NCBI GenBank assembly: GCA_037308085.1
Contig: CP147779.1
Span: 576,001 to 640,000 of the forward strand
Origin: Promethearchaeati archaeon SRVP18_Atabeyarchaeia-1
GTDB taxonomy: Archaea; Asgardarchaeota; Atabeyarchaeia; Atabeyarchaeales; Atabeyarchaeaceae
Reading direction: 5' to 3'
DNA length: 64,000 nt
A program made the translations under genes and the position numbers. The first letter of the stretch is position 1. Each line of letters starts with the position of its first letter. The notes under the pieces are model-generated. The model ran no database searches. It saw nothing but the letters and a program-made list of their open reading frames with translations, and had not been told where the DNA came from. This document shows, in pieces, positions 17,277-40,297 of the stretch.

Positions 17277-17329
17277 GCCTGATGCTGCACTCCAGGCGGT
17301 TACGGGCCACAGAATAGAAGCAGCCTTCC

Positions 17330-17632
17330 TTATGTCTTAGGCGAGGGCTGCCTACCTTCACCACCAACTTCCCTTATTTCGCCTGCCTTGCTTACCTTGA
17401 ATTTATGCTTAGTCCTCGTAGTTGAGGAGGGCCCTTCATAGAGCTCGCATACGACGGTAAAATCCTTTCTCCCCCTCTTGACAGAGGCTACCGTAATCTC
17501 CTTCCAGTCCGCCACAATCCTATCAGCTGCCCTCTCCATTCCAGCACCCTTCTTCGTCCCAGACTCATTCCTTTCAAGATAGTTTCTTGCAAGCAGGGCA
17601 GCCGTGTCAGCATTGATCTCTTTTTCTTTCAT
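17330..17632 (-). CDS. Hypothetical protein
   Basis: 100-aa ORF with a TATA-like element upstream. Confidence 0.5.
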   Translation of the reverse strand: MKEKEINADTAALLARNYLERNESGTKKGAGMERAADRIVADWKEITVASVKRGRKDFTVVCELYEGPSSTTRTKHKFKVSKAGEIREVGGEGRQPSPKT

Positions 17633-17759: not shown

Positions 17760-18215
17760 ATGCCTAAGTGCCCAGTCTGCGGTGCCAGCATAAGCTCCAA
17801 CGAGCGGGGGTTCAGAGGACGGGGAACATTCGAATGCCCCGAATGCAAGACAAAGCTCAAACTAAGCAGCTCAGTACACACAGTCATCTACACAACACTG
17901 CTACTCGCAACCATCGCGACCATCATCATACTGGTCCAGACCTCCGGGGGGCTAACAGGCACCCACCAATATACAGTCAATGGCGAAATAGCTGGAGCGT
18001 TGGGCTTTCCCGGATCCTTCTTACTAATTTTCTTCGCCCCCTCCATGTATTGGCTGGAAAAGGCGCCCCTCAAGATCGTTGAGCGAAGACCAAGGTGCAG
18101 CCACTGCAACACCATCATTACGCAGCAAAACCCAGAGTTCTGCCCAAAATGCGGGGAGCGACTGACGACTGAGGACCTAAAGGGCACCTTGCCCCGACGC
18201 ACACCCAAGGGTTGA
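17760..18215 (+). CDS. Double zinc-ribbon membrane protein
   Basis: CPVC/CPEC, two TM segments, then CSHC/CPKC. Confidence 0.75.
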   Translation: MPKCPVCGASISSNERGFRGRGTFECPECKTKLKLSSSVHTVIYTTLLLATIATIIILVQTSGGLTGTHQYTVNGEIAGALGFPGSFLLIFFAPSMYWLEKAPLKIVERRPRCSHCNTIITQQNPEFCPKCGERLTTEDLKGTLPRRTPKG

Positions 18216-18318: not shown

Positions 18319-18346
18319 AGGATCACACCGCTTCAACTCACCCTCA
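18319..18346 (-). repeat. atpB 3'-end copy D (core only)
   Basis: AGGATCACACCGCTTCAACTCACCCTCA matches atpB 29127-29154 and reads EGELKRCDP. Confidence 0.85.
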
Positions 18347-18420
18347 CTCTAGTTAAACCTGGATGACTAGAAACCAATCTGCCAAAAGAAAACCAAAAAA
18401 AGAAGGGGAATTGGAGTGTT
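18347..18420 (-). repeat. Shared terminator/junction block (second copy at 22711-22780)
   Basis: CTCT(A/G)GTTAAACCTG.ATGAC.AGAAACC.ATCTGCCAAAAGAA..CAAAAAAAGAAG.GAATTG occurs at both sites. The oligo-A run is oligo-T on the coding strand. Confidence 0.8.
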
Positions 18421-18441: not shown

Positions 18442-19779
18442 CTACATCGTTTTCCTGTTGTGCCCGTCTATCATGAAGACGAACCCAACTATGCCGTGAA
18501 GGTTCGGTACAATGAATTTCAGGTTTATGTAATCCCCTTTGAATGTCTGCGTCCACGTGTCGTCGTTGAACATGAGTGGCCCTTTCACGTTCCCGTCGCG
18601 CGAGTGAACTGCCGATATCAGTGGGCATAGGTTCCATCTTCCGTACTTGTCAACGGCGTAGAGCTTGACCTGGTCGATCCACGAGTGGCTGTTGTTGTAC
18701 GCTGCGCCGATCTCAGCGAGCCGTATCGAGCAAACCTGGTGGTTTAGAGCTGGCATCGTGGTCAAGGTGTGGAACACGGTTATGTCGCTTTCAGGGTTGA
18801 CCAAGTTGTGTAGGTTCAGGACGCCCTCGTTAACGAACCCTGTGCCGTCCCAGACCAAGAGGTCCGGGCAGCCGCCACCACCGCCAGGCGGAGGGGGAGG
18901 GGGAGGCGGATAAAGATCCAACGTGACCGATGTCTGCAGAGTTTCCAGGGTCTCAACATGGGTTGGATTACCATCTACATGTTCGAACTGAACCGTTGCA
19001 ACCAGTGTTATCATGTGGGGGATGTTGCCCCTCGTGAGGTACCACTCGATGTCGGCATAAGCCGAAGCTTCGTCCACGCCATAGTTAGCCATCCACCATA
19101 TGTTCCTCTCGTAACTGGCGTCGATGAATCCTGGGTTAATCCATGTAAAGTATCCTCCACTGCTAGCGAAGGGGACATCGGTGTAAGAGCCACCATCTTG
19201 GTTTGCCTGGGACATGTCGTTGCACAGCGTGGTGATGCTATATACCCATCCAAGGATCCCAATGCCGGCAAGGGATGTTATCAGGTCCACCCCAACACCC
19301 AAGGCATACGAGTTGAGGGGGTCGATAGGGTGTGTCTCAGGAATGGGTTTCAAGCCCAAAGTGTTGGTATTATGAATGTATATTCCCATGTATTGCTGGT
19401 AAGATGGGTCCTCAACGACGTCGAGCTTAACCCACCTCACGAAGTAGAACTGATTTCCGGCAGGGGGCTCGGTATCATGAAACACGTTAAGGAGGGAAAC
19501 ATCTATGCTGACTCGAAGCGGCAAAAGGTCATAGGAGTAGCCGCCATCTCCTCTATAGTCGAAATCATAGACGTAGCATGCAATCGCAACCCCGCCCATA
19601 TTCCCTTGCTTCGAGTCCCCAATTGTTTGCCGGAATTGTGTGTCTGTAGTGGGCGTATAAGTAGAGAAGACACTGGGATGCCACGTTGCCGCCGCTGGTG
19701 CCACAACACTGAAAGTAGTGAGTAGCATTACTGACATGAGGGCTATCGTAGCGAGCTTTAATGATCTCTTGTTCTCCAT
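18442..19779 (-). CDS. Secreted protein with Pro/Gly linker and conserved C-terminal 'GGGG-CPxLxVxxG' domain (cargo of unit 4)
   Basis: Signal peptide, then PPPPPPPGGGGGCPDLLVWDG. The C-terminal domain aligns with that of 20580..22190. Confidence 0.85.
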   Translation of the reverse strand: MENKRSLKLATIALMSVMLLTTFSVVAPAAATWHPSVFSTYTPTTDTQFRQTIGDSKQGNMGGVAIACYVYDFDYRGDGGYSYDLLPLRVSIDVSLLNVFHDTEPPAGNQFYFVRWVKLDVVEDPSYQQYMGIYIHNTNTLGLKPIPETHPIDPLNSYALGVGVDLITSLAGIGILGWVYSITTLCNDMSQANQDGGSYTDVPFASSGGYFTWINPGFIDASYERNIWWMANYGVDEASAYADIEWYLTRGNIPHMITLVATVQFEHVDGNPTHVETLETLQTSVTLDLYPPPPPPPPGGGGGCPDLLVWDGTGFVNEGVLNLHNLVNPESDITVFHTLTTMPALNHQVCSIRLAEIGAAYNNSHSWIDQVKLYAVDKYGRWNLCPLISAVHSRDGNVKGPLMFNDDTWTQTFKGDYINLKFIVPNLHGIVGFVFMIDGHNRKTM

Positions 19780-19834
19780 TTACTCGTCTCACTTCTCTCT
19801 CCATGTCTTGCGTTCTCTCTCAGCCCTTCAATTA

Positions 19835-19886
19835 GGGCTAGGCGGTGACCGCCTCCAAGACAAGCAGCCTTGGCTTACCTGCCGTG
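19835..19886. promoter_or_regulatory. Conserved leader block with 15-bp palindrome AGGCGGT-G-ACCGCCT (copy at 22253-22307)
   Basis: Identical palindrome at 19840-19854 and 22258-22272, each 60-70 nt upstream of the cargo start codon. Confidence 0.6.
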
Positions 19887-20039
19887 TTTCGCATCTGAAC
19901 AACGCAAGCATCGTTGCTCTGGGTTTCCCTCAACCGACTTAGCTGAGTTGTTCCCTGAGCGCCCCTCTTGAGCGGCGAATCGTCTCGATTCTGAGACTCT
20001 AGTTGCCTATCACGGCAGGATTTGTTTCCCCGTCCCTCG

Positions 20040-20143
20040 ATCAACTGATAGAAATTATTCCGATGGACCTGCTATTTATAGTTAACGTTTTCTGCTGGGG
20101 GAATCGATTATCGCATTAGAAATAAAACGGCCCCCCGCGCAGC
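20040..20143 (-). promoter_or_regulatory. Duplicated promoter block (copy at 22397-22500) with TATA box TATAAATA
   Basis: TCAACTGAT.GAAATTATTCCGATGGA.CTGCTATTTATAG...CGATTATCGCATTAGAAATAAA occurs at both loci. Confidence 0.75.
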
Positions 20144-20263
20144 GGAACGTGCCTCGAGCAGAACAAGAAAAACCAGCAAGCCGAGGAAATCGAGCCCTTT
20201 CAAGAACCAGTAAGGGAAACAAGCCAAGTAGCGAGCTTGTGAGAAGGGAGGAGAGAAAAGCGA

Positions 20264-20365
20264 TCAGGCGGTTGCCTGCGGCGTCATAGAAGCGTACTTG
20301 TAGCGGCTGGCCCTGCGGGCAGCCTCAATCGTCTTTGGATCGCAAGGCTTCAACTCATTCTCAGA
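20264..20365 (-). repeat. atpB 3'-end copy C
   Basis: Reads [32 protein letters not shown] against the atpB end [32 protein letters not shown]. Confidence 0.93.
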
Positions 20366-20579
20366 AGCGCACGGTGGGAGCAACCCGGTGAGATTATGTC
20401 CTACCTGCGTGACAATGTTTCATGGGATTCCTCGTCGTTGCATCGGGCTTGCTGATCTTGGAGCTTATTACCAATCTTCGAGTATTAGGGTCACAGGAAG
20501 ATGTTTACTGTCAGCATCTGGTGCATAATAGAAAAAGTAAGGGAGTTGGAGTAGTCTCTCGATCCCTTTAGGTGTTGGC

Positions 20580-22190
20580 TCAGAATTTCGATATCACGTT
20601 ATATCCGATTATGACGAATGTGAAGCTTACTGGGTGTATCCATGGTGGTAGCGCTAGGAATCTGAGGTCTATGCTCTGGCTGGCGCCATTGTTCCACTTT
20701 GCCCCAAACTCAGTTGCCCTCAAATTGTCGTCCAAGAGCAGCTGCGGCAACACGTTACCGACTTGTGTTTCAACCGCTGAAACCAAGGGTAGTTGAATAG
20801 TCTTGCCGTTACTCAGGGTAGCGTAGAGCTTGACTTGGTTGATGTGGCTGATCGTCTCCCAATGCTCCGTTAGTCGGAACACGTATGTGTGGTCAACAAC
20901 TGCTGGCGTGTCTGTTAGGATGTGGCTTCTTACCAAGTCCGTTCCATTGTACCCAGAGTGTATGTCCAGCAGACCTTCGTTGACGTACTGAGAACCGCTG
21001 TAGACGTAGAGGTACGGGCAGCCGCCACCCCCGCTCTTTGACCATTGTACGTACACTGTGACCGCCGAAGTGTAAACACAGTCTCCCAACTCGTCATAGA
21101 CTCTAGCTTGAATTGTGTGGGCTACCGGACTAGTAGAAAGGGACACTTCCTTGTACCATAGATGATTGTCTCCGGCTTCGAGATCTAGCCAGGTGCCACC
21201 GTCGCAACTTACTTGGACACCACTAATGAATGGATAATTGCCCTGGTATGCATACACATAAACGCCAACAGCAGCAGTGGATCCGCTGGTGTAGAAAGTC
21301 AGACCAGATGTCGGGTATTTAAGTTGAATCTGAGGCAAATCAGTTATTTTGTTGTAGTTGTATCTGATTACGTCATTTGCATCTATTGTTACATCCGCGT
21401 AGACAGGAGCAGTTCCCACCTGCTTCCCAGTTCTCGGATCAGTGATAGGTTGCGTATCGACTACGTAACTGACCCTGATCGCGTAGTGGACATACACGAG
21501 ATAGGAGCCGTCACCTCCTGTGCAACCGAATTGGAACTTGAACATCAATGAACGCTGTGTCGAGTCTGCCCCAAGAATTGCACGATTGCGATCGTAGTCT
21601 CCATACACATCGTTACCGGTGCCATGTCCAGTCGTGCAGAATGTTCCGTCGAGCTGTACATTCGGTAGCAAGGCGCTAAGACCCGTGCCAACGTGGGCAA
21701 GCAGAAATTTGGCGAGAGCGTTAAAGATGTATGTTAGTAATGGTGCAGCATCACTGCTTGCCGGAGGAGAGGTTTTGACCGAATCCGCGTAAAGGGAGAG
21801 CCAGTTCCCAGGTACCTGGTTGGACTTTGGATCAACCACATAGGCATCAATGCACAGCCTTGTTACCTCGCCCACCCCCGCATCGCATATCAGTCCGCAG
21901 ACGATGTTCTGGTACTGTTGATTGCTAGTTGCGAACTGGCTGACAAGATACTCAATTGACATACCATAGGTGATATTGAATGGCTGTGCGTGGTAGTAAA
22001 CCCCAGACGGTGGGGTAACACGGATTGTCTTCAATTGTGCGCCCGAATGGTAGATCCCATTTGGATATTGCTCTTCTGTTGCGGTGCATTGCGGAAGAGC
22101 GTAAGCGAACATCGTAAGCAACAAGAGCGCTGATACGAGCAATACAGCTCTATACTTGCGAGTGCCAATTCTGCATGTCAGATTTCTCAC
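20580..22190 (-). CDS. Secreted protein with Ig-like domain and conserved C-terminal 'GGGG-CPxLxVxxG' domain (cargo of unit 3)
   Basis: Signal peptide, an Ig-like (Big_7-like) segment ending HTIQARVYDELG, then KSGGGGCPYLYVYSG. Confidence 0.85.
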   Translation of the reverse strand: MRNLTCRIGTRKYRAVLLVSALLLLTMFAYALPQCTATEEQYPNGIYHSGAQLKTIRVTPPSGVYYHAQPFNITYGMSIEYLVSQFATSNQQYQNIVCGLICDAGVGEVTRLCIDAYVVDPKSNQVPGNWLSLYADSVKTSPPASSDAAPLLTYIFNALAKFLLAHVGTGLSALLPNVQLDGTFCTTGHGTGNDVYGDYDRNRAILGADSTQRSLMFKFQFGCTGGDGSYLVYVHYAIRVSYVVDTQPITDPRTGKQVGTAPVYADVTIDANDVIRYNYNKITDLPQIQLKYPTSGLTFYTSGSTAAVGVYVYAYQGNYPFISGVQVSCDGGTWLDLEAGDNHLWYKEVSLSTSPVAHTIQARVYDELGDCVYTSAVTVYVQWSKSGGGGCPYLYVYSGSQYVNEGLLDIHSGYNGTDLVRSHILTDTPAVVDHTYVFRLTEHWETISHINQVKLYATLSNGKTIQLPLVSAVETQVGNVLPQLLLDDNLRATEFGAKWNNGASQSIDLRFLALPPWIHPVSFTFVIIGYNVISKF

Positions 22191-22396
22191 TATCCTTAGA
22201 CTCTTTCTTTCTCTATATTTCCCTGTCTTGTTCTCTTTCTGCCCCTCATATGGGGCCAGGCGGTGACCGCCTCCAAGACAAGTAGCCCTGGCTTCTTAGC
22301 CACCGTGACCCACGCCAGACCGACGTGCCCACGAATCATCATAGACCTCAATCTCCAGCCGCGAATCACGGCAGACTGCTTTTCCTCTTCCCTCAA

Positions 22397-22500
22397 TCAA
22401 CTGATTGAAATTATTCCGATGGATCTGCTATTTATAGCTGTCGCGTTCTACTGGGGGAAACGATTATCGCATTAGAAATAAACCGTCCTCCAGCGCATCG
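22397..22500 (-). promoter_or_regulatory. Duplicated promoter block (copy of 20040-20143)
   Basis: Near-identical to 20040-20143, including the TATA box. Confidence 0.75.
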
Positions 22501-22610
22501 GGACTAGGGTCTCGGGCAGAACACGCCGGCAGACCCGTTCGCGTTATCCTATTCTCCGGCACGCCGTCTGCAGAAGAGACTTGCAGGGTAGACAAATAGG
22601 GAAAGAAGGG

Positions 22611-22710
22611 TCACGCCGTTGCCTGCGGCGCCGTACACGCATACTTGTAGCGGCTGACCTTGCGGGCAGCCTCAATCGTCTTAGGATCACAACGCTTCAA
22701 CCCACCCTCA
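22611..22710 (-). repeat. atpB 3'-end copy B
   Basis: Reads [32 protein letters not shown]. Confidence 0.93.
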
Positions 22711-22800
22711 CTCTGGTTAAACCTGTATGACGAGAAACCGATCTGCCAAAAGAAGATCAAAAAAAGAAGAGAATTGAAGAATCTATAGGTAGCGATGCAA

Positions 22801-23808
22801 TCACCAAGTGAGACCGTACGGATTGGGGACCTCCCACGGACCGGAAGTGGTGGCTGTATTTCCAGCGGAGTCGGTAACCGTGTGCGTAAGGATATAAGTA
22901 CCCGGCGCACTGTAAGTGTGATCTACTACAAAGCCTGTTGCCGTGGAGCCATCACCAAAGTCCCAAGTGCTGCTAACGTAAGGCGTGGTGCCTCCACTTG
23001 AACTGTCAGCGAATTGTAAGTAGAGCCCATTCCAGTGAACTGCGTAGAAGTTAGCCTGTAGTTGAAGATCCCCGGCGCAAGCAGGATAGAAAGTAGGCTC
23101 TGTAAATGACGGAGTCTCTAATGGTATTAAGCCGGGTTGGACTCTCCAATGCGTAGTTATTGTGATGCCGGTTGCAAATGCCTGGTACTTATGTGTTCTA
23201 ATCAATGCCGTCAGAAGCACTTGGTTCGAATTTGATTGTGCAATGTCATTCATTGAGAATGTCCATTGAATATAGCCTCCGAAATTGTCGTCACGCTGTG
23301 TCGTAATCGTAAGAGACTGCTGAGTGTAAGAAGATGTGGCGGAAAAGGTAAGTACGTCCTGACTATTTAGAGATACACCAGTGCCATATGTAAACGACGT
23401 CGTGCCTGTGCTCGGGTCTAGATAGACAGCCATGGATGAATGAGCTAGCTCAAGCCTCGTTGTAGCTCCAGTTATGTATCCAGATTCGCCTCGACTCTTG
23501 CTTGGGTTCATTACTTCCAAGATATAAATCGCGTAATAGTCATATTGCGTACTGGTAGTCGGGATGTACTTGATCATCCATTCATAGTGCAATTGACCAA
23601 CATAGTAAGTCGTTGTATACCATGGAAATATCCAGAAATAGAATTGATGTGTAACATAGTAATCCCTAATGACGGGACCAGAGCTTTGGGCGGTTGGGTT
23701 CGTCCATAGACTAAAGACGTCGTCCGAAGCACGAGCTGGTGCTGCTTGCACTGCCAGAATACTCGTCATCATTACTGCGATCACGATGAATGCAAATGCT
23801 TTTCTCAC
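22801..23808 (-). CDS. Secreted protein with C-terminal PKD domain (cargo of unit 2)
   Basis: Signal peptide after a GTG at 23808 (GGAGG upstream). PKD signature WDFGDG...HTYSAPGTY..T.TVTD..G. Confidence 0.85.
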   Translation of the reverse strand: MRKAFAFIVIAVMMTSILAVQAAPARASDDVFSLWTNPTAQSSGPVIRDYYVTHQFYFWIFPWYTTTYYVGQLHYEWMIKYIPTTSTQYDYYAIYILEVMNPSKSRGESGYITGATTRLELAHSSMAVYLDPSTGTTSFTYGTGVSLNSQDVLTFSATSSYTQQSLTITTQRDDNFGGYIQWTFSMNDIAQSNSNQVLLTALIRTHKYQAFATGITITTHWRVQPGLIPLETPSFTEPTFYPACAGDLQLQANFYAVHWNGLYLQFADSSSGGTTPYVSSTWDFGDGSTATGFVVDHTYSAPGTYILTHTVTDSAGNTATTSGPWEVPNPYGLTW

Positions 23809-23971
23809 TCTCTCTCCCTCCTCTCTTGGTCCGCGCCTCCACGCGGCCATTCCTGACTACTCAGCCGCGTATATTTATGCATTTCGATAGAAAACTGTAC
23901 GGAGGTTGAGTATCCCCAGCCACGAATATGTCAGAAGCGTCAAAGTCAGGTTCGTGAAAATAGATCTACTT

Positions 23972-24079
23972 CTATTCCTCTATGTACTCGTACGCATTCA
24001 CCTTGCGGGCAGCCTCAATCGTCTTAGGATCACAGCGCTTCAACTCACCCTCAGGAAACACTGAAAGAAGATCCCAAGC
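23972..24079 (-). repeat. atpB 3'-end copy A
   Basis: Reads [35 protein letters not shown] against atp[33 protein letters not shown]. Confidence 0.93.
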
Positions 24080-24116
24080 CATTGCTGGAAATAGGCAATA
24101 ATCAGGTGACAATAAC

Positions 24117-25073
24117 CTACTGCCGGTTCTCCGATGCATAATCGTGTAGTAGGTTCTCTTGAGAGTCGGACTTAGTTGACTCTCGACTAGTATTCGGCGT
24201 ATTAAGAATAATAACTTCCTTGATCGCTCCTCTCCCGTCGCCCTTGCAGCTTATCATTCTCTTTGCGAGGATTTCCTCCACCTTATACCCGCTGTAAAGA
24301 TCTGTGATAAGGGGAGCAGCGCTGTTACTTAGCATTAGGAGGCATCCCCTTTTTGCCAGCTCGTCGAAGACCTTAAAGAGGTTTCTTTGGTCATCCTCCG
24401 AGAATGAGCCGCTAGTGTAGCTCGTGAAACTGGAAGTCTTGGAAAGAGGCTGGTATGGTGGATCGAAATAGACAAAGTCTCCTACGGTCGCGTACCTCAA
24501 AACTTCATCATACGGTCTGATATTGAGCTCGACTCCCTCAAGTAACCTGCTTGCTTTGAGTAGGTTACGCTCCTGCACGATCGATGGCTTCTCATAGCTA
24601 CCCATTGGCACGTTGAACTTACCTTGGGAGTTGACACGGTACAGGCCATTGAAACACGTCTTGTTGAGATAAATGAAGTCAGCTGCATTCACTAGGTCCG
24701 GAAAGTCTTCTTTGTTGATCGACGTTCTGAAGTTCTGCCTAGTCTCATAATAGTGGCCTCTTGGATCTTTGTGATGCTCTCGCGCGTGTCTCTTGAGTTC
24801 TGAAAGCAATTTATTGACAGCGTCCCGGACAGAAACGAATCCGTTGATCAAAACGGAGTTGACATCGGTTAGAACGAAATCCCTCTTCGACGCACCCTTC
24901 TTTTCAAGAATACTCTTCAGATAAAAGAAGACTGCCCCACTTCCAAGGAAAGGTTCGAAGTATCTCTCAAAGACCTTGGGAAAGTATTTTCTGTACTCTC
25001 CTAGAAGCTGGGTCTTGCCGCCTGCCCATTTCACAAAGGTGGGAACAGATATCCTCGCGGATTTCGGGTCCAT
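24117..25073 (-). CDS. dam: Dam-family (GATC) N6-adenine DNA methyltransferase, DpnM-like
   Basis: KWAGGK, YFEPFLGSGAV, FNGLYRVN..G.FNVP.G, DPPY and SNS motifs. Confidence 0.95.
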   Translation of the reverse strand: MDPKSARISVPTFVKWAGGKTQLLGEYRKYFPKVFERYFEPFLGSGAVFFYLKSILEKKGASKRDFVLTDVNSVLINGFVSVRDAVNKLLSELKRHAREHHKDPRGHYYETRQNFRTSINKEDFPDLVNAADFIYLNKTCFNGLYRVNSQGKFNVPMGSYEKPSIVQERNLLKASRLLEGVELNIRPYDEVLRYATVGDFVYFDPPYQPLSKTSSFTSYTSGSFSEDDQRNLFKVFDELAKRGCLLMLSNSAAPLITDLYSGYKVEEILAKRMISCKGDGRGAIKEVIILNTPNTSRESTKSDSQENLLHDYASENRQ

Positions 25074-25130: not shown

Positions 25131-26027
25131 ATGAGTTTGGAGGGAGAATTGTTGGTAGACTATCGCTTGCTAGGCTTCGAAAGCGAGAATCAATACCTTG
25201 GCTATTTCTTCGAAACACTTCTCAAGACTAACTGGACCTACGAGTACTTCGTCTACTGGGAAAAAGTCAGAGAAAACACTAGGAAGAATGTGAAGGAGAT
25301 ATCTCTCCTAAATTCTCTGACGAAAATCCCGCCCAAGAACAGGAAGGAGGAACTTCAGAGGATCTTCATGGAGTACCCGAAGACGATACCAGTCATCCCC
25401 TCAATCATAGCAATAAGGGAGAAAATCATTCCCATCCTGGAAATCGAGAAAACACCTCTCTACAAGACATTTGACTTTTCTGTCAGAAGACTCGAAGAAC
25501 AAGAGATCCAAGATCTCACCGATTTCTGCGAGAAAGCGGGGATTCTCCAACTTCTTGGAGAGATCAACGATCTCTACGCATACATGCTCGGAGTAGAAGT
25601 CGGACTGGACTCAAATGCAAGAAAGAATAGAAGCGGAGACATATTCCAGCAACTAGTAGGCATGCTCCTGAAGAGAAAACTAAAGCAGGCGGATCTGAAA
25701 ATAGTGACTGAAGATTCAAGCGTAGTAACCACCAGGAGCAAGAGAGCAGACTTTGTTCTCTACCATAGAGGCAGTGCAAAGATAGTGATTGAGTGCAATT
25801 TCTACAACACCACCGGCAGCAAACCAATAGAGACAGCAAATGCCTACGTAGACTTCCAGCGAAGGATACGTGAGAAAGGAGGAACCTCCTTCATCTGGAT
25901 AACCGACGGGCCTGCATGGGAAACAATGAAACAAACCGTCATGCAAAGCTTCAGAGAAATCGATTTTCCAATGAACTACACGATCGCAGGCGACAGACTA
26001 GACAGCCTAGTATCAGCTCTCCTATAG
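25131..26027 (+). CDS. DpnII-family type II restriction endonuclease (GATC)
   Basis: GVEVGLDSNARKNRSG, IECNFY...GSK and FIWITDG..W are characteristic of DpnII/MboI enzymes. Divergent from dam. Confidence 0.92.
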   Translation: MSLEGELLVDYRLLGFESENQYLGYFFETLLKTNWTYEYFVYWEKVRENTRKNVKEISLLNSLTKIPPKNRKEELQRIFMEYPKTIPVIPSIIAIREKIIPILEIEKTPLYKTFDFSVRRLEEQEIQDLTDFCEKAGILQLLGEINDLYAYMLGVEVGLDSNARKNRSGDIFQQLVGMLLKRKLKQADLKIVTEDSSVVTTRSKRADFVLYHRGSAKIVIECNFYNTTGSKPIETANAYVDFQRRIREKGGTSFIWITDGPAWETMKQTVMQSFREIDFPMNYTIAGDRLDSLVSALL

Positions 26028-26185
26028 GACCCGCAGACGCGTACTCGCGACTCGGCACAACAAAGAAAACCAGTAAACCTAGAAAACCGGGCTCTTGTAC
26101 TGCTTGGCTCCCTGCACCGCATCTCCCATTTTAGGGCCACGGTGATTGAACTCACCCCCACCCAAGGAGATCCCTTCTCACTCCA

Positions 26186-27727
26186 ATGCGCCAACGAGGG
26201 ATAGCGCTGCCAGAAATGTACCAGAGAGACGGAAGTAACAATGGCTTAGTGGAGACTATAAGGCGACAACCGGAACCACCAACCAGCAGGAAAACAAGGC
26301 GAGGCCAGACTATGACCGGCGGACAATCGGCTGAAAGTAGCAATGGGTCTTCTCCGCTTGAACTCAACAAGAAACCCCGAGGCTTCGCCGGCGAAAACCT
26401 AGAACAGCTTATTGATCAGGGAGTACTGCCCAAGAAGGATGAAGCAAAGCTAGGCAACAACACGGTCTTGAGACTTGACGTGAATATGGGGCTCACCATA
26501 ACCCACGAGAACATAGACTACAGGATCTCAAGCGCGAACCACAGCAAGATAGGAGACCTAGACTTCTACAGATACGCCACCCAACGCGGGGAGGAATTCC
26601 TCCACATCCCAGCCCAAGGCAAGCTTGTCCCACCCACTGAAATGACCTGGTACGCGTACCCCCCTAACACGGAAGTATATCTGGACAAGAAGTACAAGCA
26701 CAAACTGCTTGAGACTGCAGTAAAGAAGGCAGGAGGGATAGTTGCCCTTCGGCATGAACTAAAGCGAAACGGAACAAGAATGAACGCCATGTACGTCTAC
26801 AAGCAGCTGAACGATCTGAGAAAAGGTATGACTGAAGATAAGTTGATTCCAATTCTCAACTACCTAGGAAGAAACCTAGATGAGGCAAGCAACCACATCT
26901 ACGCGATAGGACACATCCAAGCAGTGAAGGACCCTCAACTACCGTTCAACTTGAGTGGAAAGGATGGTGCAAGGCTACTATCTGCCAGGTACGGAGACGG
27001 AACACTCTGTGCATCAGTAGGGAGAGGACCAAGGTTTGACTACTCTAACAATGATACAGAGATGAGAGACAGAGTAATCGAATCATTAACCAATGTGTTC
27101 GGCGAACCAAACGTACTCAACAGAGAGCACAGTGATGGCCGAGTCTCGCAGGTGCGTACATCGTCAGACATCATCGGACATGCACTGCAAAGGGCGGGAG
27201 CAATAACCGGTGAAATCGTTAACCAGAATCCTCACGTACCCACATGGATCGAACAGGGATCCATAGAAAACAAGCGCGAGTGGATAGTCCAAGCCTTTGG
27301 TGACGAAGGATTTGTGTGGGCAAACAGGGGAAAGGTCTGCATAGGAAGATCTGTCGAGTTGACAAGCGTCTTGCTAGAACACATGTCTCGACACCTTGAT
27401 CAGATGGACTGGGGGAGCAGGTATATTGACGATGTCTTTGTCGATGACGTAAGAGCATGTGATGATCTTCCAGCCGACATCACTCAGGCGATAAGAGAGC
27501 ATCCCATCAACCTGCTAGTCGAAGAGAAGAAGATGCTTGAAGATTTCGGCATAGTCACAGAAATGTATCCCTCAGAGATTCATAGAGGAAAGTATGGAGA
27601 CTATTCAGCTCATTGGACCCTGCAAGCCAAAACAAGAGAAGACACGAGACGTTTCTATGAGGAGATAGGGTTTCCCCAAGAAAGAAAGCAGGAGGACCTA
27701 AGATCGGCTATTCGGTTTGAGAGGTGA
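26186..27727 (+). CDS. Free-standing LAGLIDADG/DOD homing-endonuclease-like protein (true start may be downstream, e.g. ATG 26311)
   Basis: Two LAGLIDADG-like helices (GARLLSARYGDGTL and EWIVQAFGDEGFV) and the DOD-type tail FYEEIGF..ERKQ..L. No Hint blocks. Confidence 0.7.
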   Translation: MRQRGIALPEMYQRDGSNNGLVETIRRQPEPPTSRKTRRGQTMTGGQSAESSNGSSPLELNKKPRGFAGENLEQLIDQGVLPKKDEAKLGNNTVLRLDVNMGLTITHENIDYRISSANHSKIGDLDFYRYATQRGEEFLHIPAQGKLVPPTEMTWYAYPPNTEVYLDKKYKHKLLETAVKKAGGIVALRHELKRNGTRMNAMYVYKQLNDLRKGMTEDKLIPILNYLGRNLDEASNHIYAIGHIQAVKDPQLPFNLSGKDGARLLSARYGDGTLCASVGRGPRFDYSNNDTEMRDRVIESLTNVFGEPNVLNREHSDGRVSQVRTSSDIIGHALQRAGAITGEIVNQNPHVPTWIEQGSIENKREWIVQAFGDEGFVWANRGKVCIGRSVELTSVLLEHMSRHLDQMDWGSRYIDDVFVDDVRACDDLPADITQAIREHPINLLVEEKKMLEDFGIVTEMYPSEIHRGKYGDYSAHWTLQAKTREDTRRFYEEIGFPQERKQEDLRSAIRFER

Positions 27728-27984: not shown

Positions 27985-28704
27985 TTGAGGGGATACGGTT
28001 TGGTTCGCCAAGTCAGGAGACCCATAGAAAGGCTCACCGATATGCTTCTTCTGCTCTTTCTGATCAACGATGTTAATGATAAAGATCATAACTGCGGAAT
28101 CACGAAGCTACAGAAGCTTGTTTTTCTGTCCCAACTAGAAATGAACAACCATAGACAGAAGGGGTTCAGCTACAAGTTCGTGAAAATAAATCTCGGACCA
28201 GTCAGTGGTCAGATTGAGAAAACTGACATTCCCAAGCTAGAGAAGGTTGGATACTTAGCCCAGGAGCAAGTTGGCAACTTCAACAAGTTTGTTGCCAGTG
28301 AGAGCGGTTCCAGATTTCTTAGCCATCTTTCAGGCATTTTCCATCGGAACGAACGATTCGTGCAGATTATATCCAGAATCAACGAGAAGTACTCTGGCAT
28401 GTCAGCCACTGATCTTGTTAACGAGGTTCACAGTATGCCGAACCCCTACAGGCGGAATCTGACCATAGATGAAACCCCCCAAGGAGAGGTCTTACTCTCA
28501 AAGATATCAGACAAAGCCACCCAAACAAGATTCGACTTCACCGGTAACGAACTCGCAACCCTTGAACTCTACTTTGACGCGGAGGCCAGAGAATCAGTTG
28601 AACGTGCAATGAGTTCAGCACTAAGTGAGCCTAGCGTTCCTTGGGAGGTCGTCCTTAGACATGCAGAAGAAGCGCTACGAGGTAAGGGTCAGCAAAGACT
28701 TTGA
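27985..28704 (+). CDS. Panacea/SocA (DUF4065)-like antitoxin
   Basis: ITKLQKLVFL...Y.F....GP.S motif. Overlaps the downstream toxin gene. Confidence 0.72.
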   Translation: MRGYGLVRQVRRPIERLTDMLLLLFLINDVNDKDHNCGITKLQKLVFLSQLEMNNHRQKGFSYKFVKINLGPVSGQIEKTDIPKLEKVGYLAQEQVGNFNKFVASESGSRFLSHLSGIFHRNERFVQIISRINEKYSGMSATDLVNEVHSMPNPYRRNLTIDETPQGEVLLSKISDKATQTRFDFTGNELATLELYFDAEARESVERAMSSALSEPSVPWEVVLRHAEEALRGKGQQRL

Positions 28705-28996
28705 GCGCGAATTCATAAAACTCGTTAAGAGAGACCCTGAACTGAAGCGCAGACTTGAGTCTCGAATCGAGGAGCTTTCTATAGATCCTAGATTAGGAAC
28801 GACGCTCTACAAGTGGGATTATCAAGGCTGGAGGAAGGCTAGGGTTGGAGAGTACCGCATAATACTGGGAGTGTGCGAGGAATGCAGACAGATCCGAAAC
28901 CCGAATCTGCAACGATGCATCGACTGCGATCAAATGACTGACAACTTAGTGAAACTCATTGAAGTCGGTCACCGGAACGATGTCTATGATGACTAA
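28625..28996 (+). CDS. RelE/ParE-family toxin with CxxC..CxxC insertion (ATG at 28661 likely)
   Basis: YEVRVSKDFEREF...WRKARVGEYRII...IEVGHR.DVY RelE pattern. Confidence 0.85.
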   Translation: MSLAFLGRSSLDMQKKRYEVRVSKDFEREFIKLVKRDPELKRRLESRIEELSIDPRLGTTLYKWDYQGWRKARVGEYRIILGVCEECRQIRNPNLQRCIDCDQMTDNLVKLIEVGHRNDVYDD

Positions 28997-29054: not shown

Positions 29055-30536
29055 CTAGGCGGTTGCCCGCGGAGACATAGACGCGTACTTATAGCGACTG
29101 GCCTTCCGGGCAGACTCGATCGTCTTCGGATCACAGCGCTTCAACTCACCTTCAGGAAACGCCGACAACAAATCCCAACCAAGATCCAAAGTCTGCTCAA
29201 TGCTGCGATCCTCGTATTCCCCTTGACTAATAAACTTGCGCTCAAAGGTGTCAGCAAACTTCAGGTAGAGCTTGTCCCTATCAGTCAAAGCCTCCTCACC
29301 AATAACGGCAACCAAATCACGGAGATCCATACCCTCACTAAAAGCATAGTAAAGCTGATCCGACACTTCACGATGATCCTCACGCGTATGCCTAGTCCCA
29401 TCCTTCTCGACACCGATGCCCTCTTTCATTAGGCGACTCAGAGAAGGACGCGGATCCATCGGAGGGTAGATGCCCTTGTGGTGTAATGCCTCAGAAATAA
29501 TCAGTTGTCCCTCAGTGATATAACCGGTAAGGTCGGGAACGGGATTCGTAATGTCCCCGTGGGGCATCGTGAGGACGGGCATTTGTGTGATGGTGCCTTT
29601 TCTGCCTTGTATTCTTCCTGCTCTTTCGTAGATGGTGGCGAGGTCTGTGTAGAGGTATCCGGGGTATCCTCTTCTTCCTGGGACTTCTTCTCTTGCTGCG
29701 CTTATTTCTCGTAGGGCTTCTGCGTAGTTGGTCATGTCTGTTAGGATGACGAGTATGTGTAGGTTTTGTTGGTATGCGAGGTATTCTGCGGTGGTGAGTG
29801 CGCATCTGGGTGTTATGATGCGTTCGATGGCTGGGTCGTCTGCGAGGTTTAGGAAGAGGGTGCATCTTTCTAGTGCGCCGGTGCGTTCGAAGTCTTTGCG
29901 GAAGTATTGGGCTTCTTCTGCGGTGATGCCCATGGCTGCGAAGATTACTGCGAATTGTTCTTCTTTGCCGAGTACTTTGGCTTGTCTGGCTATTTGTGCT
30001 GCTATGCGGTTGTGTGGGAGTCCTGCTCCGCTGAAGAGTGGTAGTTTTTGTCCGCGGACGAGGCTGTTCATGCCGTCGATGGTGCTGATGCCGGTTTGTA
30101 TGAATTCTCTGGGGTAGGCTCTTGCGTCGGGGTTGATGGGGCTGCCGTTTATGTCCCACATGTCTTCGGGGATGATTGGTGGGCCGTTGTCGATGGGTTC
30201 GCCTGAGCCGTCGAGTATTCTTCCGAGGATGTCTGTTGTGACCGGGATCTTTAGCGTTTCTCCTGTGAATCTGGCTGTGGTGTTCTTCGTGTCGAGTCCT
30301 GTTGTTCCCTCGAAGACTTGGACGATGGCTTTTCCTCGCCCTACTTCGAGGACTGTGCCTTTTCTCTTTTCTCCGTCCGGTGTTTCGATGTTGACGAGTT
30401 CGTTGAAGGACACGCCTTCTACGTTTTGAAGTATTATTAGTGGTCCCTTGACTTCGGTTACTGTCCTGTAGGTTCTCTTGGTGTAGAGGTCGGACGTTGC
30501 GGTCCGTGGTTCTGATTCTTCTCTTGCTGTCTTCAT
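29055..30536 (-). CDS. atpB: A/V-type ATP synthase subunit B
   Basis: [66 protein letters not shown]. Confidence 0.98.
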
Positions 30537-30734: not shown

Positions 30735-33700
30735 CTAGAGGGCCGTCCTGTCAGTTATGTGGTTTGCGAGTTTGTCGGTTTCATCTTCGCTGAAGTGCAT
30801 GACCACTACTCCGGGTTGATTGATTTGGGCGACCAGGTCTCTGAGTTTCTTGGCGTCCCTTTTCCAAGGTGTGATTATAATCAGCTCTCCTGTTTGCTCG
30901 TATTTTAGTTCCTGCCTTATCCTTGCGAGCTTGGAGATTGCCGTAGTTAGGTCTATGCTGTTGTTCGTCCAGGTTGCGATCACGTGTTGGTTGTCGGTGG
31001 TTGCGAGAAGCTCCATGACTTGGTCTACCCATCTTGTGTTGACTCCCTTGCTGTGTAGATCTCTGTGGATTGCGTCTATGATGTATTCTTGTAGTATGTT
31101 CCTTGCCTCGTGGTCCGCGATTTGGTAGTATATTCTGGTAATGGTTACGGGAACCGTGTAGCTCGGCGCCTTGACTTCGCCGAGAAAACCATTTCTGATG
31201 AGAGGCTCAACCAGATTCCTCAATTCCTGTTGTGTTTGCACGTTGAGCCTCGATTGGAGTTTTGTCTCCTCGACTATCTCCTGCAGGTGCCTGAAGGCTC
31301 CTCTCACTTTGAGCCATGTCTCTTTGTCTTCTGATGCCCGCGGTGATCTGGCCATGGCTTGGTCCGGTGGTTTCCCTGCTTCTGGTTTCTGTAATCGGTT
31401 TGGGAAGACTAGGTTCATCTGGCTAGGCGGAGCTGAGGCTTCAATTCTCCCCGGGGGTGCCAGGGTCGGGAGTGTCTGGTGACTGACGGGGTAGGCTACT
31501 TGGGGGGTGATTGCGGCGCCTAACCTATCCTGTCTCTTTTCTTCTCTTGCCCCCTTCATACTCTCTATTGCTTTTATGGATGTTTTCAGGGCTTCCCTGT
31601 AGTCTCCTGCCTCGTAGGCTTCCTTTGCCATGTTTCTGAGCCTCGCGGTCTCTGGGGGAAGTGGTTCAACGGGTTTGTGTAGCCGGCTGGGGGTCTCCTC
31701 CATTCCGGTGCTTGGCTTCTGGATCTTCGCTTCCGTGTCGTATATTATTGGGTAGTTCATCATGTTGTTTATCATAATGTCTCTCTTCTCAACTTTCGGA
31801 AGATCCATCTCGAGAGTTTTGATCCTGATTGGCTTGGGGAACCTTGGCGTCGTGATTAGCGCCTCTCTCTTCGGCATTGTCTTCAGGTAGCTTGCCTGCT
31901 CTTCGTCCAAGTTGAGCCACTTTGCTGCTCGCTCATTGTCCACCGTGGTTCGAAGAAATATCTTCGTGGCGGCGTTTGCCACTATGTTTTGGCTTATGTT
32001 TGGTCTTTGTGTCGAGACAATTACTCCTTGTCCAGTGGATCTTAGCAGCAGGACCATTTGTTCGGTTATTGTGGTCTCGGCAGTCGTTTTTCTGGCCAGT
32101 ATCTCTGGGACTATGTCGAGGGCATCATCGATCACTAGTATGTGCTTTAGCTCTTGCTGGACCCCTCTTTGCTGAGCCGCCGTGGCCACATACTTGGTGA
32201 TGATATTCGAGATTAGCCGCAAGTCTTCGGCAGTTCCTTTAGCCTTGACTTCGCTGAGATCTATAATTGCCCTCCGTTTGACCAGATCGCCGAAATTCAC
32301 GTTGCTCACGTCATTATCGAAGACGTCGCTTAGGGGAGTTCTAGTAAAAGAGTTCAGGCGATTGAGCAGTGCCTGGATGGTGGAGTTGATCTGGGGCATA
32401 GAACCTATACCGAGTTTCTCTGCATATGTTTTCAGCCAAGCATTGAATCCTTCCCAGCCTCGGGGATGGATGCCAACCTCAGCGACTCTCTCCCTGCCGT
32501 GCCCCCCCTTTTGATCCTGCGCCACATTCGTCCTAGCGTCTTCTGCCTCTGACTTGACGTATGTTACCAGTGCCTCATAGAAGACGCGCTCCATTTGAGC
32601 GCTTAGATCCCTGCTCTGGTCCATGAAGAGAGTTGAGAAGGTTTCCTTCAATATGGTGAAGATCTTCTTTGCGTGTGTCTCGGGATTCTCCATCTGAGGG
32701 TCAAATAGGCATATCCTAAGCGGAGCCATTTCCGATGCCGGTTTGAGGTAGACCACGTTGCTCAGGATCTTAACCAGCGGCTTGTATTCGCCCTTCATTT
32801 CTATTATCGTCCATGCGACGTCGCTGTGCGACACGGACTCAAGCAGCTTCATGATTAACCTGGTTTTTCCGAATCCGGTTTCCCCGAATATCACTGTATG
32901 AAGCATCAAGTCATCCAGTCTCATTCTCATGGGGCAGATTTCATTATCACTCGACATAACCGTGCCAAGCGTGATGTCCCCTTCCTCCAGCTCTTCTCTT
33001 GGAGGGACTTCAAAGTTGGATGCCGTGGTTCTTGGTATTCCAGGCATGCAATCCTCTGGAAGGCTCAACAGCGTCGCCGCCAGTTTCGACGACACCTCCA
33101 TCATGGAAACTCCTGCCCCGCGCCTGAAGAGGATGTTATCAAGCTGCGACTCGATTTTTCTACCTTTGAGTTTCAGGCATTTCACTCTACTTCCCGCACT
33201 CGAGTAGATAGCCTCAATACATGCATCTCCCTTCTCCTGGAAGAGCTTCACATCCTCAGCGCTTCTGCCTCGGTACGCTGCGAAGGCCGAAACCTTCCAG
33301 AATCCGGACAGTTGGGCGCGCCTCTCCTCGTGTGCCTCTGACTTCCTCTCATTAAGTTCAAGCATGACCTTCATGTCAGGTTCGTTTCTTGCCTTCTCAA
33401 TGAGTTTTGCCTCAGGCGTTATGGATGGAGGGTTCGTCGTTTCCAAGCGAATCACTATTGACGCTGTAAGATGCTCCTTCGCGGAAGCCGCTATGAACTG
33501 CTGCGACGGCGCTTGCACCATGTCAGTAGCACCGGGCGATTCAACTTCCCCTTTGAGCGCGCTGACAGCGACATAATGCTCTTCAGAGCCGTCAGTACCA
33601 TCAATTCTCAGGCAACCCTCAGCCCTTTCGTGGGCGCAGCATGGATCTGCCCCCAAGATTGATCCATACCCGAGCCACATCGCATCGCCCTGAAGGAATT

Positions 33701-34496
33701 CAATCTTACAGTGAAATCTCGCTTGAAGCACAGTCTTCAGTACCTCGGCCTTCCGCTCAGCTGATCTTGCTGCGCAGTCAGCGTCGGAATCAGAGGCCGA
33801 TGTGAAGAACTTGATGGACGTTAGACCGTTTTCAACCATGAACTCAGCGCCGAAATCCGGAACATTGCTCCACAACGAAACTAGATAAGAGTATTGCGTA
33901 AATCCCTCAAGTGACGCCCCAGGGTCTTCGACTTGGTCGCGAAGGACTTTACCCCGTCCCATTGTTGTTGAGGAAGGGGGTGACTGGCTAGTAACCTTGA
34001 GAATGCAGAGGGCCACTTTCCTGTGGCTCCTGACGAAGAGAAGGCTTCTCCCACGATAGGACTTCGCGCTGTTCGCTGCGGCTACATAGCTGTGGCTGCT
34101 TGACATCCGGCGCAGGATGAATACACCTGCTAAAGCAGATGACGTGAGTAATCCAAATGAGAGGAGACCCATAGTGAAAATACTGGATCCCGCGCGCAGA
34201 CCTATCACCGGGGAGAATAGGTAAGCGGAAAGCAAGCTTGATGCCGTAGAACTTAGCGCAGTAATCTCCACATAACGTATCTTGCTCCTTGCAGACCGTC
34301 TGCCGAAAAACTCGTACGCAGCCCACCACAGAGCCACAAAGACTGGAATAGTGACAAGCATCCCCGGCAAGTCGCCATAAACTGATGTGGATGCGAAGCC
34401 TTGATCGAGTTGAGCAAGAAGCCTCAAGACAAGTAGGAGAAGCATGTCAGAGGAAACAAGAAGCGCCATAACATTTCTAACGCTAATCGCTGGCAC
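30735..34496 (-). CDS. Membrane-anchored HerA/VirB4-like (DUF87) ATPase
   Basis: N-terminal TM segments, HTVIFGETGFGKT Walker A, ILVIDDA Walker B, RSTGQG...STQRP and N motifs of the FtsK/HerA family. Confidence 0.85.
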   Translation of the reverse strand: MPAISVRNVMALLVSSDMLLLLVLRLLAQLDQGFASTSVYGDLPGMLVTIPVFVALWWAAYEFFGRRSARSKIRYVEITALSSTASSLLSAYLFSPVIGLRAGSSIFTMGLLSFGLLTSSALAGVFILRRMSSSHSYVAAANSAKSYRGRSLLFVRSHRKVALCILKVTSQSPPSSTTMGRGKVLRDQVEDPGASLEGFTQYSYLVSLWSNVPDFGAEFMVENGLTSIKFFTSASDSDADCAARSAERKAEVLKTVLQARFHCKIEFLQGDAMWLGYGSILGADPCCAHERAEGCLRIDGTDGSEEHYVAVSALKGEVESPGATDMVQAPSQQFIAASAKEHLTASIVIRLETTNPPSITPEAKLIEKARNEPDMKVMLELNERKSEAHEERRAQLSGFWKVSAFAAYRGRSAEDVKLFQEKGDACIEAIYSSAGSRVKCLKLKGRKIESQLDNILFRRGAGVSMMEVSSKLAATLLSLPEDCMPGIPRTTASNFEVPPREELEEGDITLGTVMSSDNEICPMRMRLDDLMLHTVIFGETGFGKTRLIMKLLESVSHSDVAWTIIEMKGEYKPLVKILSNVVYLKPASEMAPLRICLFDPQMENPETHAKKIFTILKETFSTLFMDQSRDLSAQMERVFYEALVTYVKSEAEDARTNVAQDQKGGHGRERVAEVGIHPRGWEGFNAWLKTYAEKLGIGSMPQINSTIQALLNRLNSFTRTPLSDVFDNDVSNVNFGDLVKRRAIIDLSEVKAKGTAEDLRLISNIITKYVATAAQQRGVQQELKHILVIDDALDIVPEILARKTTAETTITEQMVLLLRSTGQGVIVSTQRPNISQNIVANAATKIFLRTTVDNERAAKWLNLDEEQASYLKTMPKREALITTPRFPKPIRIKTLEMDLPKVEKRDIMINNMMNYPIIYDTEAKIQKPSTGMEETPSRLHKPVEPLPPETARLRNMAKEAYEAGDYREALKTSIKAIESMKGAREEKRQDRLGAAITPQVAYPVSHQTLPTLAPPGRIEASAPPSQMNLVFPNRLQKPEAGKPPDQAMARSPRASEDKETWLKVRGAFRHLQEIVEETKLQSRLNVQTQQELRNLVEPLIRNGFLGEVKAPSYTVPVTITRIYYQIADHEARNILQEYIIDAIHRDLHSKGVNTRWVDQVMELLATTDNQHVIATWTNNSIDLTTAISKLARIRQELKYEQTGELIIITPWKRDAKKLRDLVAQINQPGVVVMHFSEDETDKLANHITDRTAL

Positions 34497-37600: not shown

Positions 37601-38040
37601 ACGAGGGTTGTCTCAGGGATTTCTCCAATTATGGAGCCAGGCTCAACTTTACTCCCTTTCTTCAGTAGCGGAGTGAATTTCCACCCAATGTTCTTTGGAA
37701 GTGAGTCTGCGACAACTCCCCTCTTAATGAAATCGCCCACTGCTTCCTTGATTCTAGGCAGTGGTCGTTGAATTCCATCGAAGATCTGGCCTATGAGACC
37801 GGGACCCAGTTCAACTGATAGTGGGCGGCCAGTTGCGACCACGGGTTCTCCTGGCCTGATGCCAGCGGTTTCCTCGTAAACCTGAATCGTGCAGACGTCT
37901 CCCACGATTCTGTTAACCTCTCCAATTAGGCCTTCGTTCCCTACTCTACAGACTTCATACATCTTGACTCCGCGAAGGCCTTCACCATCAACAACGGGTC
38001 CTGACACCCTGACTATCTTGCCTGTGACCTCGGACACCAT
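34621..38040 (-). CDS. atpA: A/V-type ATP synthase subunit A, intein-containing
   Basis: [16 protein letters not shown]|intein|[40 protein letters not shown] before the ATG at 38040. Confidence 0.98.
35695..37314 (-). mobile_element. Intein (540 aa) with LAGLIDADG homing endonuclease in the AtpA P-loop (VMA-b-type site)
   Basis: Starts CVTGETPV, block [17 protein letters not shown] and [10 protein letters not shown] motifs, an HTH-like insert, and ends [12 protein letters not shown]...FHN/T. Confidence 0.96.
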
Positions 38041-38358
38041 GTTCACCTCTGGAACGAGTACACTCCGCCAACGAGCCATTGGTGAGGAGATTGGACTACT
38101 CTTAAAACAGTTACGGCAGGTCCGACTTATTTAAGGATTATGAAAAAAGGTTCTGTTACCTCTGCGGTTGATCTGACCGTTTTGTGTGGCTGTTACTTTT
38201 CGGTTGATGGCTTGCGTTCTATTAACTTGCGCTGGAATGGGGTCAGCGGTTAATCGTTGTAGGATGGCTAACATAAATCGGTTGATAAACAGTGACCATT
38301 GACCTCTTAGCGCCAATCTCGGAAGTTTTAAGAAGTAAGTCGATCGAACCTCTATTTT

Positions 38359-39177
38359 ATGAAGATTACGAATCAATACCGAATGATAAGTAGAATAACC
38401 GAGCTTATCGGAAATCTAAAAGAGGTTAATGAAGCCTCAACACATGGTAATAGTGTTGTGCAACTCTCCAGAGTTGAATGGGTTTGTCCCATATCATTTC
38501 TTCCGATTGTGGCTTACGCAAACCATATGAATATCTCAGTTGACTATTCGGGTCATAGCGAAGACATATCTACCTACCTTAATGCAATTGGCTTTCCTAA
38601 CGGTGTAACTGAGTTCACCAGAATGAGGAAGAATCTTCTTCCGATAACACGTGTGCGATGCTCCGATCGTAACGACATCCTGACTTTGTATGAAGACAGA
38701 ATATTGAGCCAGCTTCCACAAGCGCAAAGGCGAGAGGCATTAGGCGGTCTGAAATATCTGACTAGCGAACTAGAAGCGAACGTGCGAGAGCATGCCCACG
38801 TTGACGGTTACTGGGTTTTTGCTCAGTATTGGCGACGCTCAGGGATGTGCGAGATAGGTATTTGTGATACAGGAATCGGATACAAGCAATCGTATGTCGG
38901 AACACCATATGAAGTGACAAGACATATTGATGCAATCGAAAATGCGCTGGGAGGTAAGTCTTCCAAGTTGCCTCGGGAGAGAGGGGCAGGTATCCCGACT
39001 ATTGCTCGTATATTAGCTGAGGGTTATAGAGGTGAGCTAATCATAATGTCAGGAGATTCTCTTTTGCTTTCAGAACGAGGAAGAAGGTCTGGATACAGAT
39101 TTGGCGTCAGTTTGCCAGGCTCATTTGTCGGACTTAGGTTTCGTTTGAGTGGAATTAATATATATAATTTTATATAG
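38359..39177 (+). CDS. GHKL/HATPase_c-like ATP-binding protein
   Basis: ELEANVREHA (N box), ICDTGIG (G1), RGAGI (G2), GSFV. Confidence 0.75.
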   Translation: MKITNQYRMISRITELIGNLKEVNEASTHGNSVVQLSRVEWVCPISFLPIVAYANHMNISVDYSGHSEDISTYLNAIGFPNGVTEFTRMRKNLLPITRVRCSDRNDILTLYEDRILSQLPQAQRREALGGLKYLTSELEANVREHAHVDGYWVFAQYWRRSGMCEIGICDTGIGYKQSYVGTPYEVTRHIDAIENALGGKSSKLPRERGAGIPTIARILAEGYRGELIIMSGDSLLLSERGRRSGYRFGVSLPGSFVGLRFRLSGINIYNFI

Positions 39178-39198
39178 AGATAATCAGGAAAGGGTACC

Positions 39199-40282: not shown

Positions 40283-40297
40283 TCATAGTGCTTCCTC

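Follow-up and report, generated by a model that had tools for sequence, protein, structure and literature searches.

Copies of the atpB 3′ end downstream of the ATP synthase gene in an Atabeyarchaeia genome: probable scars of serial cassette insertion

Why should the 3′ end of an essential ATP synthase gene recur several times behind the gene itself? The question is raised by a 64,000-nucleotide stretch (the window; positions 576001–640000) of the complete 2.81-Mb genome of Atabeyarchaeia-1 (G000), in which atpB, the gene for subunit B of the A/V-type ATP synthase, is followed by displaced copies of its own last codons (tails), with other genes (cassettes) between them. The preliminary description of this locus took the copies for a stock of alternative AtpB C-termini. 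The analysis presented here indicates that they are probably cast-off atpB ends, the decaying scars of serial cassette insertion at the end of the gene.

Copies of the atpB end in the window

The atpB gene is intact and full length, and its product shares 88–92% identity with AtpB of sister genomes (Table 1). The copies lie downstream of the gene, are all oriented as it is and correspond to its last 30–45 codons; tails A, B and C are in frame with the gene and contain no insertions or deletions. Repeat finding recovered them as families D2 and D4, which are 69–100 nucleotides (nt) long and 85–88% identical. A 21-nt core occurs exactly three times, identically in A, B and C, and once more in the gene with three mismatches, where no occurrence is expected by chance. 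Two items, stump D and the doubtful copy F, extend the list of copies given in the preliminary description. A tail-end fragment at 17293–17321 (repeat family D9) was dropped as a chance resemblance, with no profile match even at E 10.

Table 1 Features of the atpB locus, in coordinates of the window
Feature	Position	Strand	Evidence or remark
atpA, upstream of atpB	34621–38079	−	intein-bearing
atpB, A/V-type ATP synthase subunit B, 493 amino acids	29055–30536	−	Pfam ATP-synt_ab_N, ATP-synt_ab, ATP-synt_VA_C
Live tail G, last ~47 atpB codons, resembled by the copies	29055–29198	−	part of atpB
ParE-like toxin, first slot after atpB	28625–28996	+	Pfam PF05016, E 5e-6
SocA/Panacea-like antitoxin, first slot	27985–28704	+	Pfam PF13274, E 5e-5
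LAGLIDADG-fold endonuclease-like gene, free-standing, 513 amino acids, first slot	26186–27727	+	AlphaFold2 model, Foldseek
Copy F, doubtful, strongly decayed	26094–26161	−	nhmmer E 0.033; visible in alignment
DpnII endonuclease of a DpnII-type restriction–modification pair	25131–26027	+	Pfam PF04556, 5e-74
D12 adenine methyltransferase of the same pair	24117–25073	−	Pfam PF02086, 4e-57
Displaced tail A	23972–24085	−	nhmmer E 1.8e-28; own early end, ...NAYEYIEE then stop
Secreted protein, 349 amino acids, PKD domain, after tail A	22801–23850	−	Pfam PKD_4, 1.3e-12
Cassette arm, 53 nt, upstream of tail B; recurs before stump D	22717–22769	−	repeat family D5
Displaced tail B	22611–22712	−	nhmmer E 1.2e-23; repeat family D4
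Cassette after tail B	20580–22504	−	leader modules D1 (22332–22504) and D7 (22230–22294); secreted 536-amino-acid protein (20580–22190)
Displaced tail C	20264–20366	−	nhmmer E 3e-23
Cassette after tail C	18442–20148	−	leader modules D1 (19976–20148) and D7 (19812–19876); secreted 445-amino-acid protein (18442–19779)
Shared cassette arm at stump D	18353–18405	−	repeat families D3, D5
Stump D, only the first 28 nt of a tail	18319–18346	−	nhmmer E 1.2e-4; repeat families D3, D5
Double zinc-ribbon membrane protein, distal array	17760–18215	+
100-amino-acid open reading frame (ORF), distal array	17330–17632	−

A codon alignment bears out the tail readings quoted earlier for the gene and its three copies, together with the absence of indels and the retention of stop codons. 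Tails B and C terminate at the identical codon, the stop position of the gene, with TGA in place of TAG; tail A keeps the frame over about 35 codons and stops 6 codons before that position. A pyrimidine-rich stretch follows the stop of each copy, as it does in the live gene. Over 33 codons, C differs from atpB by nine synonymous changes (eight in sense codons and the TAG-to-TGA stop change) and six non-synonymous ones, an exact match to the original count. Tail A had been described as carrying mostly third-position changes in WDLLSxFPEGEL, and six of the seven base changes there are indeed synonymous, four of them at third positions and two at first positions of Leu codons.

Divergence from the live gene is coding-like. 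The ratio of non-synonymous to synonymous divergence (dN/dS), estimated by the Nei–Gojobori method with binomial p values, is 0.25 for the gene against A (p = 0.007), 0.13 against B (p = 0.0008) and 0.18 against C (p = 0.003). Synonymous divergence of the live tail from A, B and C amounts to 0.64–0.86, and that between the atpB genes of different assemblies to 0.53–2.0. Synonymous divergence between tails is thus as large as between genera, which suggests that the DNA was imported from distant relatives.

The copies also decay. The motif EGELKRCDP is invariant in seven working genes, whereas B carries a Glu-to-Gly and C an Arg-to-Pro replacement, the latter in KRCDP. Decay among displaced copies is graded, with replacements at 0 of 26 invariant residues at one extreme and at 12 of 19, along with stops and frameshifts, at the other; the older copies in relatives show stops, frameshifts and truncations. 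Coding-like divergence from the live tail, combined with the replacements in EGELKRCDP, indicates that the copies formerly worked and are now starting to decay. The codon patterns support the conclusion that the tails would once have been working atpB ends, or replacement ends on incoming DNA, and not fresh duplications made in situ. The earlier statement that each copy was a translated end rather than a decaying duplicate therefore survives in part: the comparisons with the live tail agree with it (dN/dS 0.13–0.25), but ‘each’ is too strong in view of the pairs B–C and A–C, and decay is present as well.

Arrays in relatives and the cassettes between tails

Arrays of displaced tails recur in relatives. 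The congeneric genome G001 contains ten displaced copies on four contigs, Candidatus Atabeyarchaeum deiterrae Atabeyarchaeia-2 (CP147780.1; G002) at least six, extending out to 25.6 kb, the metagenome contig L131 five within 9 kb, and a Njordarchaeota contig (L145) one. A survey covered 81 atpB loci of other archaea and a few bacteria, 64 of which had more than 3 kb of downstream sequence; among these 64, only G002 and the Njordarchaeota contig were positive, and none of the other 62 showed extra tails, which argues that the array habit is specific to this lineage.

Purifying constraint is also evident among the tails of these relatives. In L131 the live tail differs from displaced copy c1 by 23 synonymous and 3 non-synonymous changes over 44 codons (p 9e-13), and from c4 by 17 and 2. 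Parsimony changes on a tree of 20 tails are distributed over the three codon positions as 34/24/90 for all intact tails, and as 18/18/49 (p 1e-5) for the intact displaced copies of four assemblies alone. Substitutions are hence not evenly spread and show a strong third-position excess; dN/dS of the tails is 0.02–0.25.

Tail types are common to several genomes. The YKYASM.P.ATA type is live in G000 and in the relative P0020 and displaced as B and C, and the YKYMSQSATA type is both live and displaced in G001, G002 and L131. The A type is displaced in G000 and G001, where tail A groups with a displaced copy of G001 (bootstrap 83), and no working atpB with this tail was found among the atpB genes of relatives examined. 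The expectation that relatives use the tails as live ends therefore holds for the B/C type and not for A.

Synteny between G000 and G002 is good upstream of atpB and ends exactly at its 3′ end; nothing downstream is collinear with G002, so that the boundary of the island is not definable by synteny. Two other assemblies break about 150 nt past the atpB stop. Some cassette genes recur from the array of one genome to that of another, at identities of up to 93% between genera. A 600-amino-acid array protein of G002 (587596–589398) is 93% identical over 434 amino acids to the product of positions 3448–4758 of G001 contig C51 (L132); this value exceeds the identity of atpB between G000 and G002 (88%) and suggests recent exchange of cassettes across genera. 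A metagenome scan with the exact pattern common to A, B and C gave no match, and one with the degenerate ELKRCDPKT gave nine, none with an atpB body, of which the four inspected looked like chance. Free elements carrying a tail were not found in IMG/VR viral contigs, a phage collection or a plasmid collection.

The cassettes measure 0.8–3.5 kb and hold one to three genes, which lie on both strands. Homologous D1 and D7 modules lie contiguous with tail B and with tail C, indicating that each tail moves together with its downstream cassette; an insert that supplied the new gene end would produce this arrangement. In G001 a homologue (68%) of the 100-amino-acid ORF lies directly behind a displaced tail. 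The secreted proteins of 445 and 536 amino acids share only a C-terminal domain of about 147 amino acids (35% identity; 18442–18870 and 20580–21020, both on the minus strand), which is preceded by a linker rich in Gly and a Cys; the two proteins are unrelated in their N-terminal parts.

Under the explanation that we consider probable, blocks of foreign DNA would have been inserted repeatedly, in Atabeyarchaeia and on the Njordarchaeota contig, by recombination within the last ~100–170 bases of atpB. Each incoming block would supply its own atpB 3′ end and terminator, which become the working end of the essential gene, while the previous end is pushed downstream and, once displaced, would drift and decay; the serial order of these events is inferred. 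Because the block brings its own end, insertion would never inactivate atpB. The predominance of synonymous differences among the tails would reflect their past as working or replacement ends in separate lineages. The preliminary description had recombination at any core restoring a functional atpB, and for intact copies the sequence agrees: crossing over between the live tail and such a copy would delete the intervening cassettes and leave the gene in frame, an effect that we regard as a by-product and not a purpose.

Several other features of the ATP synthase cluster were recorded. In the 3′ third of atpB (29055–29700), the fraction of differing codons among those for the same amino acid approximately doubles from aligned codon ~391 to the end, rising from 0.1–0.35 to 0.4–0.76 in most windows and in all six genome pairs compared; this high-divergence stretch far exceeds the displaced tails in length, none of which surpasses 56 codons. 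A gene for a HerA/DUF87-like ATPase (1,253 amino acids; 30735–34496, minus strand) lies between atpA and atpB and is kept at the same place in G002 and on contig L130 (1,257 amino acids), an odd and stable insertion in the cluster. The intein of atpA spans about 35695–37268 (Pfam Intein_splicing, LAGLIDADG_3), and the atpA genes of G002 and L130 (598 amino acids) are without it. Further upstream, 38100–42700, including an IS240-family DDE transposase (39503–40258), is missing from the otherwise collinear region of G002.

The search for an enzyme and the rival readings

One candidate for the enzyme lies in the first slot behind atpB. The AlphaFold2 model of the 513-amino-acid protein (pLDDT, the predicted local distance difference test score, 83.6) has a double LAGLIDADG fold, matched by Foldseek with probability 1.0 to I-DmoI, I-Tsp061I and the VMA-intein endonucleases, and the ends of both motifs (..YGDG.. 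and ..FGDEG..) are invariant in 19 homologues. Its gene lies 1.3 kb from the atpB stop and is oriented opposite to atpB; the best homologue (57%) occurs within the atpB array of G002, deeper than the first slot. The fold family has six copies in G000 (the others at 891587, 981238, 1027175, 1067015 and 1405105; L122–L126) and three each in G001 and G002, and elsewhere appears only in Njordarchaeota-like and metagenome records. Kinship with the atpA intein was rejected, with no sequence similarity between the two.

On this analysis, insertion driven by a homing endonuclease, in the manner of the mobile endonuclease ORFs of fungal mitochondria, is a possible route that we put forward tentatively. 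Three observations weigh against it as the general cause. An endonuclease gene occupies only one of the four first slots examined, that of G000; G002, L131 and L145 have none, and the L131 first-slot protein (411 amino acids) was rejected as a nuclease and resembles the MJECL33 family. Flanking repeats are lacking at the other five paralogue loci of G000 and at one locus of G002, so the endonuclease family is not generally tied to such arrays. Behind the gene, only the doubtful copy F abuts; the first clear copy, A, lies 2.1 kb further, past the restriction–modification pair.

A site-specific recombinase acting in trans is a somewhat less likely route. Six-frame searches with PF00589, PF16795 and PF00239 detected no tyrosine or serine recombinase in or beside the arrays of G000, G001 and G002, the nearest match being hundreds of kilobases away and no match falling on a contig that carries an array, and no Pfam family of this kind is recorded or found in L131 and L145. 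Likewise on the unlikely side is an integron-like platform, in which the tails would be the sites of a dedicated recombinase encoded elsewhere that captures and excises single cassettes one by one. The small size of the cassettes is in keeping with such a platform, as are the arm conserved between B and D and the limits of the copies: many start at one point, immediately after ..TTTCC and at TGAGGGTGAG, and the homology of stump D ends after TGTGATCCT, where c2 of L131 carries a 2-nt deletion. The shared start and the end of D hint at a preferred crossover, but the 5′ limits of the copies span 32–56 codons, which tells against both the crossover and the platform. So does the absence of any recombinase; as single-stranded DNA the tails fold no better than shuffled controls (z −0.73 to +0.96; both strands, four tails), and repeat finding shows no inverted repeats at them. 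No IntI or attI stands by the array, whose upstream neighbours are the HerA-like gene and atpA. The lack of a recombinase and of hairpins, together with cassette genes on both strands, indicates that the array is neither an integron nor a classical integrase-bearing element.

Plain homologous recombination of looped-out circles is the remaining route considered and is rather doubtful.

The maintained stock of alternative AtpB C-termini, kept by selection for recombination, fares much worse and is very improbable. That A, B and C retain open frames and stops and share an identical core would suit it; against this, the tails are conserved and not diversified, the continuum of decay counts against selection keeping the copies as spares, and, as the replacements in B and C and the ruined older copies of relatives attest, nothing preserves them. 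It is the cassettes that vary rather than the tails, and no atpB was found to bear the only really different end, that of A.

Least probable of all is local tandem duplication of the atpB end with neighbouring DNA followed by neutral decay without import, which gains from the similar B-to-C and C-to-D cassettes (a 2.35-kb period, with modules D1 and D7) and from the drift-like pairs described below, but is contradicted by the high synonymous divergence from the live tail with its strong synonymous excess, by mosaic cassettes whose tails are 85% identical while the N-terminal halves of two proteins are unrelated, by cargo that differs wholly between genomes where tails persist, and by tail types common to several genomes.

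Serial insertion at the live end is itself faced with evidence that weighs against it, beyond the scarcity of endonuclease genes in first slots. Neither an integrase nor an excised circle or empty site appeared in the assembled sequences, the two assemblies that break about 150 nt past the atpB stop being the sole hints of excision. B and C differ by 6 synonymous and 9 non-synonymous changes (p = 0.11), and for A against C p is 0.09; both pairs are indistinguishable from neutral drift, so that an old duplication at the locus could account for the two cassettes that encode secreted proteins. Preservation is no smooth function of distance from atpB: the closest copy, the doubtful F, is the most decayed, and in L131 c2 is frameshifted whereas c3 and c4 are intact. 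This unevenness suggests either that insertion is not strictly at the live end or that composite blocks move together. The tail tree, finally, is poorly supported because its alignment comprises only about 100 nt.

Known systems and significance

One of the closest parallels is found in fungal mitochondria (Allomyces macrogynus atp6; Glomus atp6, atp9, cox2 and nad3), where endonuclease ORFs carry a foreign C-terminus that displaces the native one, the two ends differing mostly synonymously (PMC3630166). At atpB, too, the working end would be replaced by that of the insert, the native end would be left silent downstream and differences are mostly synonymous; in G000 a LAGLIDADG-fold gene lies in the first slot behind the new end. 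Unlike the fungal ORFs, the endonuclease gene here runs opposite to atpB, with a toxin–antitoxin pair between the two, and its cleavage role is predicted; the atpB arrays moreover stack up to ten tails, most of their cassettes are without an endonuclease, and they reside on an archaeal chromosome.

The elements e14 and phage 21 integrate in icd of E. coli. In thaumarchaea, integrated mobile elements occupy the 3′ termini of protein-coding genes, whose reading frame they restore, and occur in arrays (PMC6563490). Elements of this kind share with the atpB arrays the direct repeats of the gene end that flank the insert, the rebuilt frame and the re-use of the site, which yields tandem arrays. They differ in that the atpB arrays examined contain no integrase, in that the repeats are 100–170 nt of coding sequence as opposed to identity blocks of 13–69 nt, and in the very small size of the units.

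Integrons and integrase-less attC clusters also consist of rows of small accessory cassettes with a recurring site and a fixed anchor; unlike them, the atpB arrays have no IntI and no hairpin-forming site was found in them, the site is the coding end of the gene itself and genes occur on both strands. In rhs and cdiA loci, orphan C-terminal modules, each with an immunity gene, are the variable payload stacked behind the full gene. There, as at atpB, displaced 3′ pieces with a short conserved core lie behind a full gene with which they could recombine. In contrast to those modules, the tails at atpB are conserved; it is the stretches between them that hold the payload, and the neighbours are unrelated cargo and not immunity genes. 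A survey of mobile elements in these genomes lists 14 elements (PMC11529989); the main texts of that paper and its preprint, taken without supplementary tables, mention neither atpB, ATP synthase or ATPase nor LAGLIDADG.

Serial insertion, as reconstructed here, would explain why an essential gene takes no harm from a hypervariable island, made up of genes for defence and surface proteins, inside the ATP synthase cluster, and the tails would preserve a dated history of such events. In these lineages the terminal ~50 atpB codons have a past unlike that of the rest of the gene and should be trimmed before phylogenetic analysis. More broadly, though tentatively, an integrase-free array for gene capture may use the end of an essential gene as its landing pad. 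Such an array, conserved in both Atabeyarchaeia and Njordarchaeales, would owe its activity to a selfish LAGLIDADG endonuclease or to a recombinase, and each insert would bring a recoded gene end with it; Asgard archaea would thereby have an undescribed way of collecting defence and surface genes. The interest of the locus lies in the lack of an integrase and in the recurrence of the arrays throughout an Asgard lineage. Should a homing endonuclease or a new recombinase turn out to be responsible, the locus would offer a tractable system for studying gene capture without an integrase among the closest prokaryotic relatives of eukaryotes.

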